Below are positions 4,874 through 50,280 of a stretch of 64,000 nucleotides of DNA, in pieces. Both the position numbers and the translations under genes were made by a program. The DNA lies in NCBI GenBank assembly GCA_002773755.1, contig PFAG01000014.1, forward strand, positions 6,634 to 70,633, given 5' to 3'. The notes below the pieces were generated by a model that worked only from the letters and a program-made list of their open reading frames with translations, had not been told where the DNA came from and searched no databases. The stretch is from Candidatus Colwellbacteria bacterium CG10_big_fil_rev_8_21_14_0_10_41_28 (lineage in GTDB: Bacteria > Patescibacteriota > Minisyncoccia > UBA6257 > Colwellbacteraceae). The number at the start of each line of letters is the position of its first letter. Positions within the stretch are counted from its first letter, which is position 1.

Positions 4874-5124
4874 TTTCCACAATCTATTGATAGAATAAAT
4901 AAACTACTATAGATATAAAAATATGGATTTAAGAATAAATGGTCTGTTTAATTTTGTGCTCTTTACCCATCTCTTTACTAGGAGGTTAGTTTTTATCAAT
5001 AGGCAAATCTAAGAAGATAAATCCAAACTAAAGCCGACCTCCGTTCAAAGAAGAGGCCAGTTTTAGTTTGGGGAAATGTCTTCCTCAAGGCAGTACATAT
5101 ACAACCGATAGGGAGGTGAATAAC

Positions 5125-5373
5125 TTGGCGGTCAGAGTCAAAATTAAAAAAGATGGTGTAATGGTTCCCTGTCCAGTAAACGGACAGAAGATGATTCCCT
5201 TCGATAAGAGATGGTCTTCTGGACCAGTCACCATGATCATTATTCAGGGGAAGAAGGGCCGTCTTACGCTCCGAGTGGAACACACCAACACAGGCACCCT
5301 TATGTGTTCTGAAAAAGTACAGATCAACGAAACATACATAATCGGTCTCTGGGCCATCAATAAGAGCAGTTAG
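5125..5373 (+). CDS. hypothetical small protein (GC-rich island, start uncertain TTG/ATG)
   Basis: GGGAGGTG 6 nt before TTG at 5125; stop TAG overlaps SD of next ORF (coupling); no homology recognised. Confidence 0.35.
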   Translation: MAVRVKIKKDGVMVPCPVNGQKMIPFDKRWSSGPVTMIIIQGKKGRLTLRVEHTNTGTLMCSEKVQINETYIIGLWAINKSS

Positions 5374-5383
5374 GAGGGGCAAC

Positions 5384-5653
5384 ATGAGTATCGATGAAAG
5401 GAGTAGTCGAGAGCAGCAACGGTTGTTTCTGCTCGCAACCCACTACCAAAATAGGTATGGATCAGCAGAAATCGCAAAGGCAATCAGAGCCGAACCGGGT
5501 AGCGAAGAATTCACCCATTTCATGCAGCAAGAATTGGGAGTTATCGCCCCAAGAGTGACGAAGGCGGATACTCTCGAGGTTCAGAGACAACTTCGCGAGT
5601 GGAATAATTTTGGTCAGAGATCATTTGAGAAAAAAGAAAAAGAAAGGGAGTGA
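5384..5653 (+). CDS. hypothetical protein, 89 aa
   Basis: Strong SD GGAGGGG 6 nt upstream of ATG; helical hydrophilic product; followed by terminator. Confidence 0.5.
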   Translation: MSIDERSSREQQRLFLLATHYQNRYGSAEIAKAIRAEPGSEEFTHFMQQELGVIAPRVTKADTLEVQRQLREWNNFGQRSFEKKEKERE

Positions 5654-5664
5654 TATCGCTCAAC

Positions 5665-5694
5665 AAGGGGCATCAAGATCTGGTGCCCCTTTTA
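5665..5694 (+). terminator. intrinsic terminator GGGGCA..TGCCCC + TTTT
   Basis: Hairpin AAGGGGCA-TCAAGATCTGG-TGCCCCTT followed by TTTT. Confidence 0.5.
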
Positions 5695-5821
5695 CATTTT
5701 CTGGTATAATAAAAATGTTCCGCTCTTGGTACCGGATCAAATACTTTTTACGGGGATTTCTATATCATTTGGTCCCTTGGGATTAAATTGCGATCTCCCA
5801 CCTGGTTATCGCCGGGTTGCT

Positions 5822-5875
5822 AATGCGCGGAACATAAGAGAACCGCCCTTCGGGGCGGTTTTCTTATGTTTCTAA
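5822..5875. terminator. long near-perfect hairpin (18-bp stem, TTCG loop) downstream of rpmB; likely bidirectional terminator
   Basis: AACATAAGAGAACCGCCC TTCG GGGCGGTTTTCTTATGTT; U-tracts on both sides. Confidence 0.55.
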
Positions 5876-36420: not shown

Positions 36421-37491
36421 ATGAATTACCTCATCAGAGTCAATCTTGATATTGATCCAGACAAGACTAAAAATAACCCACGCTTCAAAGAGGTGGTCGA
36501 AGTAATCGATGGTTTTGTTAACCAATCCGATAAGGTTATTCTTCTAGCCCATAGGGGCAGGCCAAAAGGAGTTCAAAAGAAACTATCTCTCGAACCATTC
36601 ACTGATAAAATAAAAAATGCTACAGGTCAAAATATTAAGTTCTTCGGTGGTTTTGAGTTTAAAGAGATACGAAGGGAAATAGAGAAAGGTAGTGAAAGGG
36701 TGTATCTCCTCGAGAATTTAAGATTCTTAAATGGTGAAGTCAAAAACAGTAAAGGGTTAGCAAAGAAGCTTGCATCTCTAGGAGATGAATATATAAATGA
36801 TGATTTCGGAACAAGTCACAGAGCCCACGCCTCAATCTCAGCAATAACAAAATATCTTCCTAGTCAGATCGGTCCTCACTTCAAAGAAGAGATCAGCTTT
36901 CTTAAATCCTTTACAGAGAAACCGCTTAGACCACTCATTCTAGTTGTTGGTGGAGCAAAATCCGAGGACAAATTAGCTGTCGTTGAAAGTCTATTGGACA
37001 ATGTGGACAAAGTTATTCTAGGAGGTGGCCCAGCCAACACGCTTCTCAAAGCAAGCGGGGTTGATGTTGGAGGCTCTATATATGATCCAAAGTTAGCTAA
37101 AAATATGGGTTGGCTTATTAATCATCCTAAAGTATCTCTTCCAATAGACTGGAAAGAAAACAGAGGAAGAATTCTTGATGTCGGCCCAGATACAATAAAG
37201 ATGCACACCAAAATATTGGAAGAGGCTAACTCTGTAATCTGGAGTGGCCCAATCGGTTTTTTTGAAAAAGAAAAATTTAGTGCAGGCACAGAAAATATTA
37301 TCGACTCTCTTACAAAAATAAATCCACCGATTTCTTTAGTCGGAGGAGGGGATACTGTCGCAAGTCTCAATCTACTAAGCTCTAAGAAGCTCCCCGAAGA
37401 ACTTCACATTTCAACTGGAGGGAGTGCTATGCTAACCTACCTAGCAGGCAAAGAGCTTCCAGCTCTTACAGCTCTAGACCAAAATGTATAA
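36421..37491 (+). CDS. pgk: phosphoglycerate kinase
   Basis: PGK motifs incl. RAHAS and C-terminal GGGD..ST.GGA. Confidence 0.85.
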   Translation: MNYLIRVNLDIDPDKTKNNPRFKEVVEVIDGFVNQSDKVILLAHRGRPKGVQKKLSLEPFTDKIKNATGQNIKFFGGFEFKEIRREIEKGSERVYLLENLRFLNGEVKNSKGLAKKLASLGDEYINDDFGTSHRAHASISAITKYLPSQIGPHFKEEISFLKSFTEKPLRPLILVVGGAKSEDKLAVVESLLDNVDKVILGGGPANTLLKASGVDVGGSIYDPKLAKNMGWLINHPKVSLPIDWKENRGRILDVGPDTIKMHTKILEEANSVIWSGPIGFFEKEKFSAGTENIIDSLTKINPPISLVGGGDTVASLNLLSSKKLPEELHISTGGSAMLTYLAGKELPALTALDQNV

Positions 37492-45096: not shown

Positions 45097-45182
45097 TTTC
45101 ATCAAAGAATATAGCTAAATAAGAGAACTCCTGATATAGTTTATTGCTCATGCCTCTAGTGCATGACTTTTTTTATAAAAAC

Positions 45183-46946
45183 ATGGGAATAAGAAACATA
45201 GCCATAATCGCCCACGTTGATCATGGGAAAACAACCATAACAGACGCTCTCATGCGCCAAACTGGTGCAACCTCTGGTGAGTCAGTCAGCATGGATAGTA
45301 ATGCGCTTGAAAAAGAGCGTGGGATCACCATATATGCCAAAAATGCATCTATGTTCTATAAAGACACAAAAATCAATATCGTTGACACTCCAGGGCACGC
45401 TGATTTTGGTTCTGAGGTTGAAAGAGTTCTCAGATCAATAGATTCAGTATTGTTAGTAGTTGATGCTAGTGAGGGACCAATGCCGCAAACTAAGTTTGTT
45501 CTAAAGAAATCTCTAGATATAGGGCTAAAACCACTTGTAGTTATTAATAAGATAGACAATCCCGCAGCAAGACCTGAAGAAGTTCACGAAGAGGTGCTCG
45601 AACTCTTTATGGATCTTGGTGCGAGCGATGATCAGCTTAATTTTGAGACCGTATACACAATTGGTAAAGATGGTATAGCTAAGAAAAAGCTTGATCAGGA
45701 CTCTAAAGATATGACGCCTCTTCTTGATGCTATATTAGAAAATATCGAACCAGCTCCATCAGAATCGGGTAAAACCCTCTTAATGCAATCATTCAACCTA
45801 GATTATGATGACTATCTAGGTCGCCTTGCTATAGCTCGAATATACGAAGGAACCGTAAGAAGTAAGGATCAGCTATTTATTAAAAGAATAGATGGATCTG
45901 TCCAAAAAGGTACTGTTACTAAAATATTCACCTTCGAAGGCTTCACTAGAAGAGAGGTTGATTCGGCTGCGGCAGGGGATATCGTGGTAATAGCAGGTTT
46001 CCCAGGTGTATATATTGGAGACACCATGACAACGGATGAATCCGCAGAGCTTCTCCCACACATTGCCGTTGATGAACCAACCATCTCCCTAGCCTTCATG
46101 GTTAACAACTCTCCTTTCTCGGGCAGAGAAGGAAAGTTCGTCACAACCTCTCAGATAAAAGAAAGATTAGAAAAAGAGTTAGAAGTTAATGTTGGTATCA
46201 AAATAGATTTTTCTCAATCAGATCAATATACGGTATATGGTCGTGGAGAAATGCATATAGCCATTCTCCTTGAGAATATGCGTAGAGAAGGATATGAGCT
46301 TCAAGTCTCTCAACCGCACGTAATTCTAAAAGAAGAAGATGGAAAAACTCTTGAGCCATTTGAGGAGTTGATAGTAGATGTCCCCGAAGAACTCACAGGA
46401 ACTGTAATTAAAAAGGTTTCTCAAAGAAAAGGTGTGCTAGCAGAAATAAAGAAGCTTCAAGTCGAATCTAGACTAATATTTGAAATCCCAACCAGAGGTC
46501 TTTTAGGTTTCCGCTCAGAACTATTAATAGATACACGCGGTGAAGGAGTAGCCTCATCAAGAGTAATGGGCTTCAAACCGCACGTGGGTGAAATCAACCG
46601 TCACGAAGTCGGTTCAATGGTATCGATGGCAACCGGCAAATCTTTGGGGTATTCGTTATTTAATCTTCAAAACAGAGGAATTTTATACATAGGACCAAAC
46701 ACAGAGGTCTATGAGGGTATGGTTATAGGAAATGTTAGTAAGGGAATAGATATGGCTGTTAATCCAACCAAAGGAAAACAGTTAACCAACATGAGGGCTT
46801 CTGGAAGTGATGATGCATTAATCCTGACACCACCATTAAAGTTAACCCTAGAAAGAGGATTAGAGATAATTGCAGACGATGAGCTCCTAGAAATAACTCC
46901 TCAGGCAATAAGATTGAGAAAAAAGGTACTAAAACAAAGGGTTTAG
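45183..46946 (+). CDS. typA: translational GTPase TypA/BipA
   Basis: [24 protein letters not shown]; EF-G-like domains. Confidence 0.9.
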
Positions 46947-46952
46947 AAACCC

Positions 46953-47060
46953 TTGACATATATATAGCAGTTGCTATAATACACTCGTTCATTAAAGACT
47001 CCGGTCTTTGATGGACATATGAAGAAATCGCCTCCGGGCGATTTTTTCACGTCTATAGAT
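46953..47060 (+). repeat. 108-bp module copy 1: consensus promoter (TTGACA-16-TATAAT) + ~60-nt hairpin RNA + intrinsic terminator
   Basis: 103/108 identical to 48715..48822; -35 46953-58, -10 46975-80, terminator AATCGCC-TCCGG-GCGATT + T6 ending 47047. Confidence 0.75.
46987..47048 (+). ncRNA. candidate small RNA (copy 1) with two stem-loops exposing CUCCGG / CCUCCGGG
   Basis: Predicted from promoter and terminator; hairpin 1 AAAGAC-UCCG-GUCUUU, hairpin 2 is the terminator. Confidence 0.45.
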
Positions 47061-47068
47061 CTCAGTTT

Positions 47069-47965
47069 CTAATCGAAGATACTAATTAGGTATTCATCTA
47101 TACCCCTTTGGCTCATATCATAAAACCCGATCCCTTGTTTGTGTAATTCCTTAGCAAGCTCTACTCCGACAAACCTCCAATGCCAGGGTTCGAATATGTA
47201 ATAGCTGTTGTCCTCTGAGTAGGATAGGACAAAGCCGTATTTATAAGCATTCTCTTGTAGCCATTGGTAGGCTTCTGTATCTCCAAATCCATTTAGACCT
47301 CCTCCCAAATTCTTAGTTGTGAAATCAATAGTTGTTCCAAGTTGGTGCTCTGAATATCCCTGATCAGCAGAGAAGGCATTGGCGCCACTGCCATATGTAA
47401 TTGAGTAACCCGACTTAAGTGCTCCTTGAGTGCCATATGATCTATATGCAGAAACTATCCACAAAGTAACCCCATCGTCAGCAGCATCTTTTATCACATC
47501 CTCTAAATAGGGAAGCACCTTAGCATGAACCTCTTTGGGCTTACTTTCATCATATAAATAGGTGAGGGGAATATTATCTAAATCTTCTGGTACGTAATGT
47601 TCATTCAAGAAATAAATCTTAGAATATTTCTGAAGAAGTTCTTCGTCTGTTTTGCTAAGCTTATCTAATATAAAAACTTGACCTGCGATATCTTCGAACT
47701 GGTTCCTAAGTTGGCCAACATATTCCTCCTTATCATTCAACTCTGCAGAAAGGTTTTCTTTCTCTTCTTTGGTTGTCTCTAGATTCTCAGTAGTTATACC
47801 AAGTTCGTCCTCTAGTTTAGCAACCCTGCTTCTTAAAGAGTCATTTTGAGTATCTAAATCAACATATTGGTAATATCCAAAACCAATAAAACCAAGCAAT
47901 ATGACTATCACTCCAATTAAGATTCCCATAGGAATAAACCTCTTTAGATTCTTAATATCTTTCAT
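47069..47965 (-). CDS. M15B (VanY-like) D-Ala-D-Ala carboxypeptidase, membrane-anchored
   Basis: SAYRSY..SEHQLGTTIDF VanY-type motifs; N-terminal TM + coiled coil; start placed at internal Met (track ORF extends to 48076). Confidence 0.65.
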   Translation of the reverse strand: MKDIKNLKRFIPMGILIGVIVILLGFIGFGYYQYVDLDTQNDSLRSRVAKLEDELGITTENLETTKEEKENLSAELNDKEEYVGQLRNQFEDIAGQVFILDKLSKTDEELLQKYSKIYFLNEHYVPEDLDNIPLTYLYDESKPKEVHAKVLPYLEDVIKDAADDGVTLWIVSAYRSYGTQGALKSGYSITYGSGANAFSADQGYSEHQLGTTIDFTTKNLGGGLNGFGDTEAYQWLQENAYKYGFVLSYSEDNSYYIFEPWHWRFVGVELAKELHKQGIGFYDMSQRGIDEYLISIFD

Positions 47966-48041
47966 CAACCAAATTCTATCACAAACAGTTGTATAGATAA
48001 TATTTTGTATAAGAACACGCACTCCCTTATAATAAAGACAG

Positions 48042-48431
48042 ATGAAGGGATATATAGACAATATAGAAAAAGTCACTAAGGAAAATAACGCGTATAGAAA
48101 AGTTCTATATACGGGTAGATACAGTCAGCTAGTTGTAATGAGTCTTAAGCCAGGAGAAGAAATTGGTAATGAGGTTCATGGCCTAGACCAATTTATACGA
48201 ATAGAGCAGGGGACTGCTAAAGTAATTTTTAACAATAAAGATGAGCATGAAGTATCGGATGACTGGGCGATAGTTATTCCAGCCACAACCTGGCATAACG
48301 TAATTAATATTGGTGATAATGATTTAAAGCTCTATTCAATCTACTCACCCCCAGAGCATAAAGAAGGGACTGTTCACGAGAACAAAGAAGATGAACAAGA
48401 GGAGCACTTCGACGGAGAAACTACAGAATAG
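48042..48431 (+). CDS. cupin domain protein
   Basis: Cupin motifs G(X)5HXH-like (GNEVHGLDQFIRIEQG..), acidic tail. Confidence 0.55.
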   Translation: MKGYIDNIEKVTKENNAYRKVLYTGRYSQLVVMSLKPGEEIGNEVHGLDQFIRIEQGTAKVIFNNKDEHEVSDDWAIVIPATTWHNVINIGDNDLKLYSIYSPPEHKEGTVHENKEDEQEEHFDGETTE

Positions 48432-48436
48432 CTAAA

Positions 48437-48718
48437 ATGATGAAATTCTTATGGGTTTTAGTTGGATCGCTAATGCTCATCGTCATGGGCCTATATCTCA
48501 TGCCCTCAAAAACATCCGCTCCAGTAACTCCATATATGGACTTTGATTTTGGAAGTAAGATTGTATATACAACCGATCTCCAAACACCAAAAGAAGCTCT
48601 TATAGAACATTGCGACTTGAGAGGAGGAGTATTTAATGAGTGTGGCAGTATATGTGAGCCGGATGTATTTACTTGCGCCTCAGTATGCGCCTATACATGC
48701 GAGGGAATAGGGGGTTGA
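48437..48718 (+). CDS. small secreted/membrane-anchored Cys-rich protein (93 aa, 6 Cys in last 40 aa)
   Basis: N-terminal hydrophobic segment, C-terminal CxxxC-rich region; stop codon TGA lies inside the -35 of repeat copy 2. Confidence 0.45.
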   Translation: MMKFLWVLVGSLMLIVMGLYLMPSKTSAPVTPYMDFDFGSKIVYTTDLQTPKEALIEHCDLRGGVFNECGSICEPDVFTCASVCAYTCEGIGG

Positions 48719-48822
48719 CATATATATAATAATTGCTATAATATACTCGTTCATTAAAGACTCCGGTTTTTGATGGACATATGAAGAAATCGCCTCCGGG
48801 CGATTTTTTCACGTCTATAGAT
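48715..48822 (+). repeat. 108-bp module copy 2 (promoter + small RNA + terminator)
   Basis: Same architecture as 46953..47060; differences confined to promoter spacer, TSS region and one stem position (C->U keeps G-U pair). Confidence 0.75.
48749..48810 (+). ncRNA. candidate small RNA (copy 2)
   Basis: As copy 1. Confidence 0.45.
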
Positions 48823-48849
48823 TTATAAAACACATAGCCAAACGTGATT

Positions 48850-48885
48850 CAGCCCTGCTAATAGATTTCTCTAGAAGCAGGGCTG
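48850..48885. other. 10-bp perfect hairpin CAGCCCTGCT..AGCAGGGCTG with GATTTCT in loop, 24 nt downstream of minus-strand small ORF
   Basis: Inverted repeat seen directly; loop shares GATTTCT with hairpin at 38453..38484. Confidence 0.4.
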
Positions 48886-48911
48886 TTAGGTTGATGGCTC
48901 ATTCTCTTTGG

Positions 48912-49022
48912 TCACCTGCTACTGATCCTCTCGTAGAGGTATGCGATGGCAACTACTGCCAAGAGCAGAGTCAGCCCAGTCGCATACGAGGCCGGTGGTC
49001 TGGTCGCCAGAGTGAAGAACAT
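48912..49022 (-). CDS. 36-aa small membrane peptide (MFFTLATRPPASYATGLTLLLAVVAIAYLYERISSR)
   Basis: GGAGGAG 4-6 nt upstream of ATG; TM helix + charged tail; antisense to a weaker plus-strand ORF from the track. Confidence 0.35.
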   Translation of the reverse strand: MFFTLATRPPASYATGLTLLLAVVAIAYLYERISSR

Positions 49023-49167
49023 CAGACTCCTCCGATTGTACTGGACATGGGGCTTCCTACTCCCCATCTTAATTTGAAAATACAATTAATTAATACGTTA
49101 GTCAAAAAGAAAAAGTGGATGATATAATTTTCATATGGATGAAGTAGATTTTAAGAATAAGAAATAG

Positions 49168-50280
49168 ATGGATAGAAAGGACTTAATTCAAATAGCAGTA
49201 ATAGTTGGTGTAGCCATACTAGTTACAGTAGGTGTGGTTTCGTTCGTAGCTCTTAGTCAAAAAGAATCAACACCAATCAATCCTATTAATATTGGCTCGC
49301 AATCGAAAGCTGACCTATACACCCCAGCGATAGATATATCTTCACCGGATGGATTCATTAATACTGATCCAATTAACATAAGTGATCTAGTAGCCGACAG
49401 CAAAGTTGTTCTACTCGATATATGGACATACTCCTGCATCAACTGCCAGAGAACTCTTCCATATCTTAATGCTTGGCATGAAGAATATGCTGATGACGGA
49501 TTGGTAATAATAGGTCTTCACACACCTGAATTTGAATTTGAAAAAGATATAGCGAATGTTAGAAGGGCTGTAGAAAAATATGGTATAGAATATCCAGTTG
49601 TCCTAGACAACGACTATTCAACATGGAATGCATATGGAAATAGATATTGGCCACGTAAATATCTAATCGATATAGATGGATACGTTGTATATGATCACAT
49701 AGGAGAAGGGGGTTACGAAGAAACAGAAAAGGCCATCCAAGCTGCTCTAGCAGAAAGAGCCAAGAGATTAGGAGAGGAACTGGATGAAATGAGTGGAGCT
49801 AAGGTAGAAAATGCAGAAACAGTTGATCCAAGAACAGTTAAGACTCCAGAAACATATATTGGATACTTAAGAGTAAGTAACATGGCTAATCTTCCATCAG
49901 AAGAGTGCTTTGATTCAAGCTGTCAGCTCGATGCTCCAGATAGACTATCTCTCAATGATTTTGCTCTGGATGGTGTTTGGAAAATAGGTTCGGAGGGAGC
50001 AACCCTAGAAAGCACTACGGGTTCAATATTTATTAAGTTCTCGGCCAATAAGGCAAATCTAGTACTAACATCAGAAACATCTGTTCTGGGCCAAATCTAT
50101 TTAGATGGAGAATTAGTGGGCGAAGCTAGTAGTGGTTCAGACGTAGTGTCTGGAACAATTAAGGTAATGGATAATGATCTATATAATCTCATAGACCTAA
50201 GAGGGGAGCCTGGAGAACATCTTCTTGAGATCAGATTTCTTGAACCTGGAGTCTCAGCCTTTGCCTTTACTTTCGGATAA
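49168..50280 (+). CDS. membrane-anchored thioredoxin-fold (TlpA/redoxin family) protein with extra C-terminal domain
   Basis: N-terminal TM; redoxin region with CxxC (SCINCQ); ~170-aa C-terminal beta-rich domain of unknown function. Confidence 0.7.
   Translation: MDRKDLIQIAVIVGVAILVTVGVVSFVALSQKESTPINPINIGSQSKADLYTPAIDISSPDGFINTDPINISDLVADSKVVLLDIWTYSCINCQRTLPYLNAWHEEYADDGLVIIGLHTPEFEFEKDIANVRRAVEKYGIEYPVVLDNDYSTWNAYGNRYWPRKYLIDIDGYVVYDHIGEGGYEETEKAIQAALAERAKRLGEELDEMSGAKVENAETVDPRTVKTPETYIGYLRVSNMANLPSEECFDSSCQLDAPDRLSLNDFALDGVWKIGSEGATLESTTGSIFIKFSANKANLVLTSETSVLGQIYLDGELVGEASSGSDVVSGTIKVMDNDLYNLIDLRGEPGEHLLEIRFLEPGVSAFAFTFG

Follow-up and report, generated by a model that had tools for sequence, protein, structure and literature searches.

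Small RNAs of the DapZ/MicL type lie inside the 3′ end of a gene, where they have a promoter of their own and share a terminator with the upstream mRNA. RatA and SR4 are 3′-overlapping antitoxins with a convergent, shared-terminator layout, and RsaE and RoxS are small RNAs with C-rich loops that mask Shine-Dalgarno (SD) sites by means of runs of 3-4 unpaired C. In the par system, convergent promoters share a bidirectional terminator, and the ~40-nt antitoxin has a second complementarity at the initiation site (PMC7472228). Here we describe a 108-bp module that is present twice, in direct orientation, in a stretch of 64,000 nucleotides (hereafter the window; PFAG01000014.1) from Candidatus Colwellbacteria bacterium CG10_big_fil_rev_8_21_14_0_10_41_28, which is also contained in a 116.7-kb metagenomic contig. 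Each copy consists of a full-consensus promoter, a hairpin (HP1) at the predicted transcription start, a second hairpin (HP2) that forms an intrinsic terminator, and a short tail. Judging from the sequence, we give an even chance to the reading that each unit is a species-specific, constitutively transcribed gene for a ~60-nt double-hairpin RNA, the terminator of which is common to the neighboring genes.

The module resembles each of these systems in part. As in the DapZ/MicL type, its promoter lies at or just past the end of the upstream coding sequence and its intrinsic terminator is the same as that of the upstream mRNA; however, RNAs of that type depend on Hfq and carry a single-stranded seed, whereas the module RNA is predicted to be nearly all double-stranded, the window offers no Hfq context, and no conservation points to a seed. 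With par RNA II it would have in common a short RNA, a strong promoter, a convergent neighbor and, possibly, a shared bidirectional terminator with complementary stem-loops (PMC7472228). Unlike in par, RatA and SR4, there is no recognizable toxin of the Fst/Ldr type: the candidate peptide is an orphan, the second complementarity is statistically unconvincing, and copy 1 faces the gene of a 298-aa enzyme. Being a short two-hairpin RNA with C-containing loops and a terminator at its end, it also recalls RsaE and RoxS, but its loops are UCCG tetraloops and the host genome makes no use of SD sites. Finally, HP2 looks like an ordinary bidirectional intrinsic terminator, with a GC core, an A-tract on its 5′ side, a U-tract on its 3′ side and a position between convergent genes at both loci, yet a consensus promoter and another perfect hairpin stand before it in a module that is duplicated in its entirety.

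Results

A repeat search of the window returned the 108-nt repeat as one family of two copies, with a spacing of 1762 nt and 103 out of 108 positions identical (95%), so that the duplication claimed in the original prediction is borne out both by this search and by alignment (Table 1). Similarity begins at the first T of TTGACA and ends 12-13 nt past the U-run; the tail after the six terminal U (U6) is perfectly identical in both copies, and the flanks of the two copies are unrelated on either side. Both variants, with the identical five differences, are present in two ENA assemblies, and partial copies are found at contig ends in two JGI assemblies and one Logan assembly, in which short contigs break inside the repeat. 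Because both variants recur with the same differences in independent assemblies, an assembly artefact can be dismissed as the source of the repeat. When this population is assembled from short reads, contigs end within the 108-bp repeat (L003, L004, L093 and L094), and in L003 the copy-2 variant is fused to the right flank of copy 1, which is probably an artefact of the assembly graph. A repeat of the MITE or REP type was also considered and rejected, as the flanks contain no terminal inverted repeat or target-site duplication and only 2 copies are found in 81 kb.

The string TTGACA-16-TATAAT occurs twice in the window, both times in a module copy, where 0.09 occurrences would be expected by chance. 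Both promoters, which had been called textbook examples, indeed match at 12 of 12 hexamer positions, and in addition carry the TG of an extended -10 element (TTGACA-16-TGnTATAAT); in hexamers and in spacing (16 nt, within the 16-18 nt of this type) both copies thus have the sequence of sigma-70-type promoters. In copy 2 the TGA within the -35 element is the stop codon of an upstream open reading frame (ORF) of 93 aa. To judge from other RNA genes, the host organism uses sigma-70-type promoters: its RNase P RNA gene is preceded by TTTACA-17-TGnTATAAA, with the Rfam match starting exactly 7 nt past the -10 element, and its tRNA-Glu gene by TTGACA-18-TATAAA. When the 7-nt distance of the RNase P RNA gene is applied, the predicted start (+1) of the module RNA is G46987 in copy 1 and G48749 in copy 2, which coincides with the first base of HP1. 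An inverted repeat, AAGGGTTT-AG-AAACCCTT (46937-46954), spans the typA stop codon and reaches into the first two -35 bases of copy 1; it lies outside the repeat.

The 67-nt stretch that begins at the predicted +1 folds at -36.9 kcal/mol in copy 1 and -34.3 kcal/mol in copy 2 (z = -8.95 and -7.43, respectively), and 0 out of 200 shuffled controls were as stable as the native RNA. The minimum free energy (MFE) structure is also the centroid and makes up 58% of the ensemble. It predicts an RNA of ~60-62 nt composed of two perfect 13-bp hairpins, each with a C(UCCG)G tetraloop, which are separated by a linker of 3 nt (AUA) and followed by U6, leaving almost no unpaired bases. The original prediction of a ~60-nt RNA that begins 7 nt past the -10 element, forms two hairpins and ends in U6 thus stands in its anatomy and fold (z ~ -9), but the stems comprise 13 bp rather than 6, and each hairpin has the 4-nt UCCG as its loop. 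All of HP1 has been made by the time HP2 is synthesized, and the 5′ arm of HP2 finds no other partner when the 3′ arm is blocked; because no alternative fold or antiterminator competes, termination is expected to be constitutive. A riboswitch or attenuator leader was rejected in view of the missing alternative fold, the large share of the MFE structure in the ensemble (58%) and the convergent gene after copy 1. An integron attC site was rejected as well: there are two separate perfect hairpins, HP1 starts with GTTCATT, which is unlike GTTRRRY, and the gene lists contain no integrase.

HP2 is a GC-rich hairpin directly followed by a U-run, as is characteristic of intrinsic terminators, and it is among only ~5 convincing intrinsic terminators in the window. 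Its 6-bp GC core (AUCGCC/GGCGAU) encloses the UCCG loop, and an upstream A-tract lengthens the stem to 13 bp. One automated terminator scan overlooked it, probably since the U-run sits inside the fully extended stem. By its sequence HP2 appears to be usable as a terminator from both strands, although the tract of its complement is only UUUCUUC. Three G-U pairs in copy 1 and four in copy 2 stabilize the + strand, which is 14-18 kcal/mol more stable than the - strand (-36.9 versus -22.7 kcal/mol in copy 1), and this points to an RNA read from the + strand.

All five differences between the copies are transitions, and at each of them copy 1 has the G/C and copy 2 the A/T. Their placement is as had been described before: three fall in the promoter spacer, one in the discriminator near +1, and one in the stem of HP1, where C→U turns a G-C pair into a G-U wobble. 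Four out of the five are found among the 22 promoter bases outside the hexamers (P = 0.006; 0.003 when G/C sites alone are counted), a partition that was picked after the data were seen, and the chance that all five spare the 12 hexamer bases is P ~ 0.5. The earlier proposal of selection on hexamers and stems is weak: the differences do spare the hexamers and do cluster, but the partition is post hoc, and compensatory changes number 0. Purifying selection on the hexamers and on the transcribed part would produce such a pattern, but a gene-conversion tract or a recent duplication accounts for it just as well. The three spacer differences also disrupt, in copy 2, the perfect palindrome TATAGCAGTTGCTATA, which overlaps the extended -10 element of copy 1 and may be an operator particular to that copy. 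Because the palindrome is broken there and all changes are toward AT, copy 2 would seem to be a decaying copy.

No family of Rfam 15 matched the module, either at the gathering threshold or at E <= 10, other than through terminator-like matches below threshold; the best of these, STnc130 (24.8 bits, threshold 55) and RNAI (22 bits, threshold 47), involve the terminator part only. A covariance model (R1) built from the two copies was run over the window, 81 kb of the contig, 80 typA loci, 50 loci of the thioredoxin-like (Trx-like) gene and the vanY loci (~1.35 Mb in all), and it recovered just the two copies, with scores above 100 bits; everything else scored at most 28.5 bits and consisted of generic terminators built from an A-tract, a UNCG loop and a U-tract. 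Fuzzy string search of the same 1.35 Mb likewise found the module nowhere beyond the two copies. In this material the module does not look like a generic dispersed repeat; the copy number of two applies to 81 kb of the 116.7-kb contig. The TypA of the window is 100% identical to a protein that NCBI lists under Candidatus Colwellbacteria bacterium CG10_big_fil_rev_8_21_14_0_10. The 80 typA loci represent GTDB species, the best with 82% TypA identity, and all related typA loci belong to Patescibacteria; relatives at 89% and 82% TypA identity have a different sequence 3′ of typA. The closest vanY homologues, which are found in other contexts, are 65% identical, and the Trx-like relatives in JGI have at most 61% identity in a partial match, or ~50% when most of the protein is aligned. 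A 30-nt core pattern gave 0 matches in JGI metagenome contigs, a weak negative, as this collection is merely a subset from which core-bearing JGI contigs (L003, L093 and L094) were not returned. Two module patterns had 0 matches in viral contigs, and blastn of 46940-49170 had none in phage and plasmid collections.

Both copies lie between convergent genes, each of them right behind a + strand stop codon and at a distance of 8-90 nt from the predicted opposing transcript. Copy 1 stands between typA and the gene of a vanY-type peptidase, whereas copy 2 starts within the stop codon of the gene for a Cys-rich secreted protein, the last in the cupin operon, and has a GC-rich orphan region opposite it. 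As far as the sequence can tell, HP2 is at both loci the only good terminator for the upstream gene on the same strand (typA; the cupin/Cys-rich operon), and its complement appears to be the nearest terminator of the convergent transcript (vanY; the minus-strand GC-rich region). Any RNA of the unit would necessarily be complementary to the 3′ ends of the convergent transcripts.

The architecture of protein genes in the host is of a different kind. SD motifs are found upstream of 10 out of 76 long ORFs in the window (13%), compared with 12% in random 15-mers, which indicates that the host does not use SD sites. Furthermore, a -10-like hexamer ends 7-10 nt before the ATG in 8 out of 25 genes with an upstream gap of at least 35 nt; genes with such a leaderless-type -10 include those at 36421, 43849, 45150, 47965 (- strand), 48042 and 54562. 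Leaderless initiation thus seems to be common in this Colwellbacteria genome.

The GC-rich region between copy 2 and the Trx-like gene (~48% GC, against a genome average of 40%) forms a long imperfect hairpin, for which the + strand gives the more stable fold (z = -4.75, against -3.0 for the - strand). Its + strand contains a 78-aa ORF annotated as COT88_01560 at NCBI. On its - strand, a promoter-like TTGACT-17-TATTTT (49105-49077) precedes a 51-aa ORF with one hydrophobic helix and a near-leaderless AUG (49067-48915), within which an internal AUG (M16) has GGAGG, a motif rare in the genome, 6 nt ahead of it; a further hairpin lies at 48889-48854. No homologues were found for either ORF, with 0 among 1.84 billion representatives and no Pfam match for the 51-aa peptide. 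Beyond the region, a 10-codon ORF, MDEVDFKNKK* (49135-49167), begins 6 nt past a TATAAT (49123-49128), and its stop codon abuts the ATG of the Trx-like gene (TAGATG); it could be a leaderless mini-ORF that hands ribosomes to this gene by termination-reinitiation.

The window has a second GC-rich island (4990-5872), in which two small ORFs carry strong SD motifs that are atypical for the genome, namely GGGAGGTG ahead of a TTG near 5126 and AGGAGG ahead of the ATG at 5384. Further on come a terminator at 5664-5694, an extended -10 element, TGGTATAAT (5702-5710), and, ~120 nt later, a strong terminator at 5829-5872; this could be a further small orphan transcription unit of foreign origin. Small GC-rich orphan ORFs also follow soon after typA in two relatives, namely one for a zinc-ribbon-like 58-aa protein in L006 (8000-8250) and one for a charged 62-aa protein in L086 (5030-5218); neither is related to the other or to the window's own GC-rich region.

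Table 1. Coordinates of the module copies, their parts and the adjoining features in the window.
Feature	Position	Strand	Description
Module, copy 1	46953..47060	+	108 bp: promoter, HP1, HP2/terminator, 12-nt tail
Module, copy 2	48715..48822	+	108 bp, 103/108 identical to copy 1
Promoter, copy 1	46953..46980	+	-35 TTGACA 46953-46958, 16-nt spacer, TG 46972-46973, -10 TATAAT 46975-46980
Promoter, copy 2	48715..48742	+	-35 TTGACA 48715-48720, -10 TATAAT 48737-48742
Palindrome	46963..46978	.	perfect, TATAGCA-GT-TGCTATA (7+2+7; TATAGCAGTTGCTATA), overlaps extended -10, copy 1 only
HP1, copy 1	46987..47016	+	13-bp stem GUUCAUUAAAGAC-UCCG-GUCUUUGAUGGAC, -16.3 kcal/mol, starts at predicted +1
HP1, copy 2	48749..48778	+	one G-C replaced by G-U, -13.7 kcal/mol
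HP2, copy 1	47020..47049	+	intrinsic terminator UGAAGAAAUCGCC-UCCG-GGCGAUUUUUUCA, 13 bp, -18.5 kcal/mol, U6 47042-47047
HP2, copy 2	48782..48811	+	terminator same as in copy 1, U6 48804-48809
Short ORF, copy 1	47019..47072	+	MKKSPPGDFFTSIDLSF*, stop codon beyond terminator
Short ORF, copy 2	48781-48828	+	MKKSPPGDFFTSIDL*, stop codon beyond terminator
typA/bipA	45150..46946	+	ends 6 nt before copy 1; HP2 is the sole plausible terminator
vanY-type M15 peptidase gene	47069..47965	-	298 aa, convergent on copy 1; stop codon 8 nt from repeat end
Cupin gene and gene for small Cys-rich secreted protein	48042..48718	+	operon ends in copy 2
GC-rich orphan region	48854..49105	-	convergent on copy 2

Discussion

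If the module is an RNA gene, RNA polymerase with the housekeeping sigma factor would bind the full-consensus promoter (-35, TG and -10) and start at G46987 or G48749. The first 30 nt would immediately fold into HP1 at the very 5′ end; a hairpin at the extreme 5′ end is a classic protection from 5′-end-dependent decay. HP2 and U6, which come 3 nt after HP1, would then end transcription in an unregulated manner, yielding an RNA of ~60-62 nt with two UNCG-capped hairpins, embedded in the 3′ end of one neighbor and perfectly complementary to the 3′ end of the other. The only partner with which such an RNA would be guaranteed to interact is the 3′ end of the convergent transcript. It would be tempting to see in it a cis-antisense, 3′-overlapping RNA that acts on convergent transcripts through duplex formation and cleavage, or through the collision of polymerases, but this role is a guess. 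The two copies would have arisen by duplication or recombination, and now bracket the segment that contains the vanY, cupin and Cys-rich protein genes.

There are several suggestive points in favor of an RNA gene. The edge of the repeat falls exactly at the -35 element, and both the promoter type and the 7-nt spacing are those of the RNase P RNA gene. In addition, the unit would be unlike the protein genes of the host, which appear to be leaderless or internal to operons and to lack SD sites. Considered as a whole, the unit is most likely an unconserved small RNA of a known class, with its own promoter and the terminator of a neighbor. Other points, however, weigh against this reading. No homologue of the module was found in Rfam, in 81 kb of its own contig or in the Patescibacteria loci searched, and in particular none stands after typA in the 80 GTDB typA loci or in the relative at 89% TypA identity. 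The two copies show no covariation, with 0 compensatory stem changes between them, and because of this the structure is supported by thermodynamics only. The 12-nt tail past U6 is also unchanged, which fits recent duplication or gene conversion as well as selection. Moreover, the RNA would have few unpaired bases for pairing in trans, and a full-consensus promoter may be poor at promoter escape.

The main rival is that what has been selected is a bidirectional terminator or 3′-end stabilizer (HP1 with HP2) of convergent genes, which would have been copied passively by recombination together with an insertion or duplication of the vanY-cupin-Cys-rich segment, the promoter being a relic or chance passenger; we regard this as possible but rather unlikely. 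It would account for where both copies sit, just past a + strand stop codon with a convergent transcript 8-90 nt away, each providing the sole good terminator there, for the conservation of the tail past U6 and for the absence of the unit from the relatives examined, and generic terminators of the same design, A-tract, UNCG loop and U-tract included, do exist elsewhere, for instance at 5829-5872. Given 5 differences in 108 nt, the hexamers, too, would stay intact in about half of all cases. However, it leaves unexplained a 12/12 promoter with TG whose predicted +1 is the first base of a perfect hairpin (chance ~0.09 per 64 kb), a repeat that begins exactly at the -35 element, and the concentration of four out of five differences in the 22 non-hexamer promoter bases (P = 0.006). 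A further, improbable alternative assigns copy 2 the role of the antitoxin RNA in a pair like a type I toxin-antitoxin system, with the layout of par (Fst/RNA II) or txpA/RatA, and makes copy 1 a second gene for the same RNA. A strongly promoted short RNA would here converge on a small candidate hydrophobic-peptide gene (49067-48915, or from M16 after GGAGG), with the bidirectional terminator in common. The par layout is a precedent (PMC7472228), and the minus-strand ORF does have one hydrophobic helix, a promoter-like site of its own, a near-leaderless AUG and, at M16, a GGAGG at 6 nt, a motif seldom seen in this genome. The RNA is complementary to three 7-mers in the candidate initiation region (P ~0.006 for a 60-nt target, as estimated from the 7-mer match rate), but the duplex with this region, at -29 to -31.5 kcal/mol against a background of -20 +/- 5 kcal/mol, is only ~2 standard deviations better and outside the 25 best segments of the window. 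Moreover, the peptide has no homologue or Pfam match in the searches above, the region folds better on the + strand (z = -4.75 versus -3.0), the hairpin at 48889-48854 sits between the ORF and HP2 and may end the minus-strand transcript first, and copy 1 faces an ordinary peptidase gene. An extension of this idea, in which the constitutive double-hairpin RNA serves as the RNA component in a control system of the type I toxin-antitoxin-like or cis-antisense kind that neutralizes a horizontally acquired, SD-bearing hydrophobic-peptide gene at copy 2 and tunes a cell-wall peptidase at copy 1, is a similarly long shot.

Two further readings concern the RNA itself. The unit might encode a peptide of 15-17 aa (MKKSPPGDFFTSIDL...) or a leader peptide with a Pro-Pro-Gly stall site over the terminator that would control read-through, which we consider very unlikely. 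Neither copy has lost the ORF, its residue 15 remains Leu although the codons, which lie just beyond the repeat, differ (CTC for copy 1, TTA for copy 2), and the Pro-Pro-Gly codons fall exactly on HP2. The original prediction had noted that this ORF lacks a ribosome-binding site; the missing site is uninformative, since the host does not use SD sites and their absence is normal for its genome, but the ORF is disfavored on other grounds. The stop codon comes 22 nt after U6 in copy 1 and 16 nt after it in copy 2, so that the terminated RNA would have no stop codon for this ORF; the AUG sits in the 3-nt linker between hairpins of -16 and -18 kcal/mol, and 38 nt from the -10 element, compared with 7-10 nt in operon-first genes; and neither an antiterminator fold nor, after copy 1, a co-oriented gene downstream is present. 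The short ORF is thus probably not translated. Least probable of all is a small RNA whose C-rich loops pair with the GGAGG SD sites of many mRNAs, a reading that goes back to the remark in the original prediction that the CUCC and CCUCC in the loops are complementary to such sites. These motifs do occur in the RNA, and one neighboring ORF carries GGAGG, but the UCCG tetraloops expose just two unpaired C, the remaining C bases being in stems, and SD motifs upstream of host genes are at background (10/76 versus 12% in controls), so that this reading fails. Because the RNA is almost without unpaired bases, masking of many mRNAs in trans is unlikely, and in a target scan of the whole window nothing stands out beyond the RNA's own antisense.

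In summary, we suggest that the duplicated module might be a gene for a small double-hairpin RNA, which on present evidence is confined to one species, without conservation. Patescibacteria have tiny genomes, and to our knowledge there is no description of RNA-based regulation of the toxin-antitoxin-like or cis-antisense kind from this reduced and largely leaderless lineage. The usual mode of action of small RNAs, the masking of a ribosome-binding site, would not apply here because SD sites are not used and many genes are apparently leaderless. If transcribed, the unit would join the very small number of candidate regulatory small RNAs from Patescibacteria genomes. Moreover, promoter and terminator function in an uncultivated lineage could be probed with this unit, which combines a consensus promoter, a 5′ hairpin that starts at +1 and a terminator in a clean, natural and complete minimal transcription unit.

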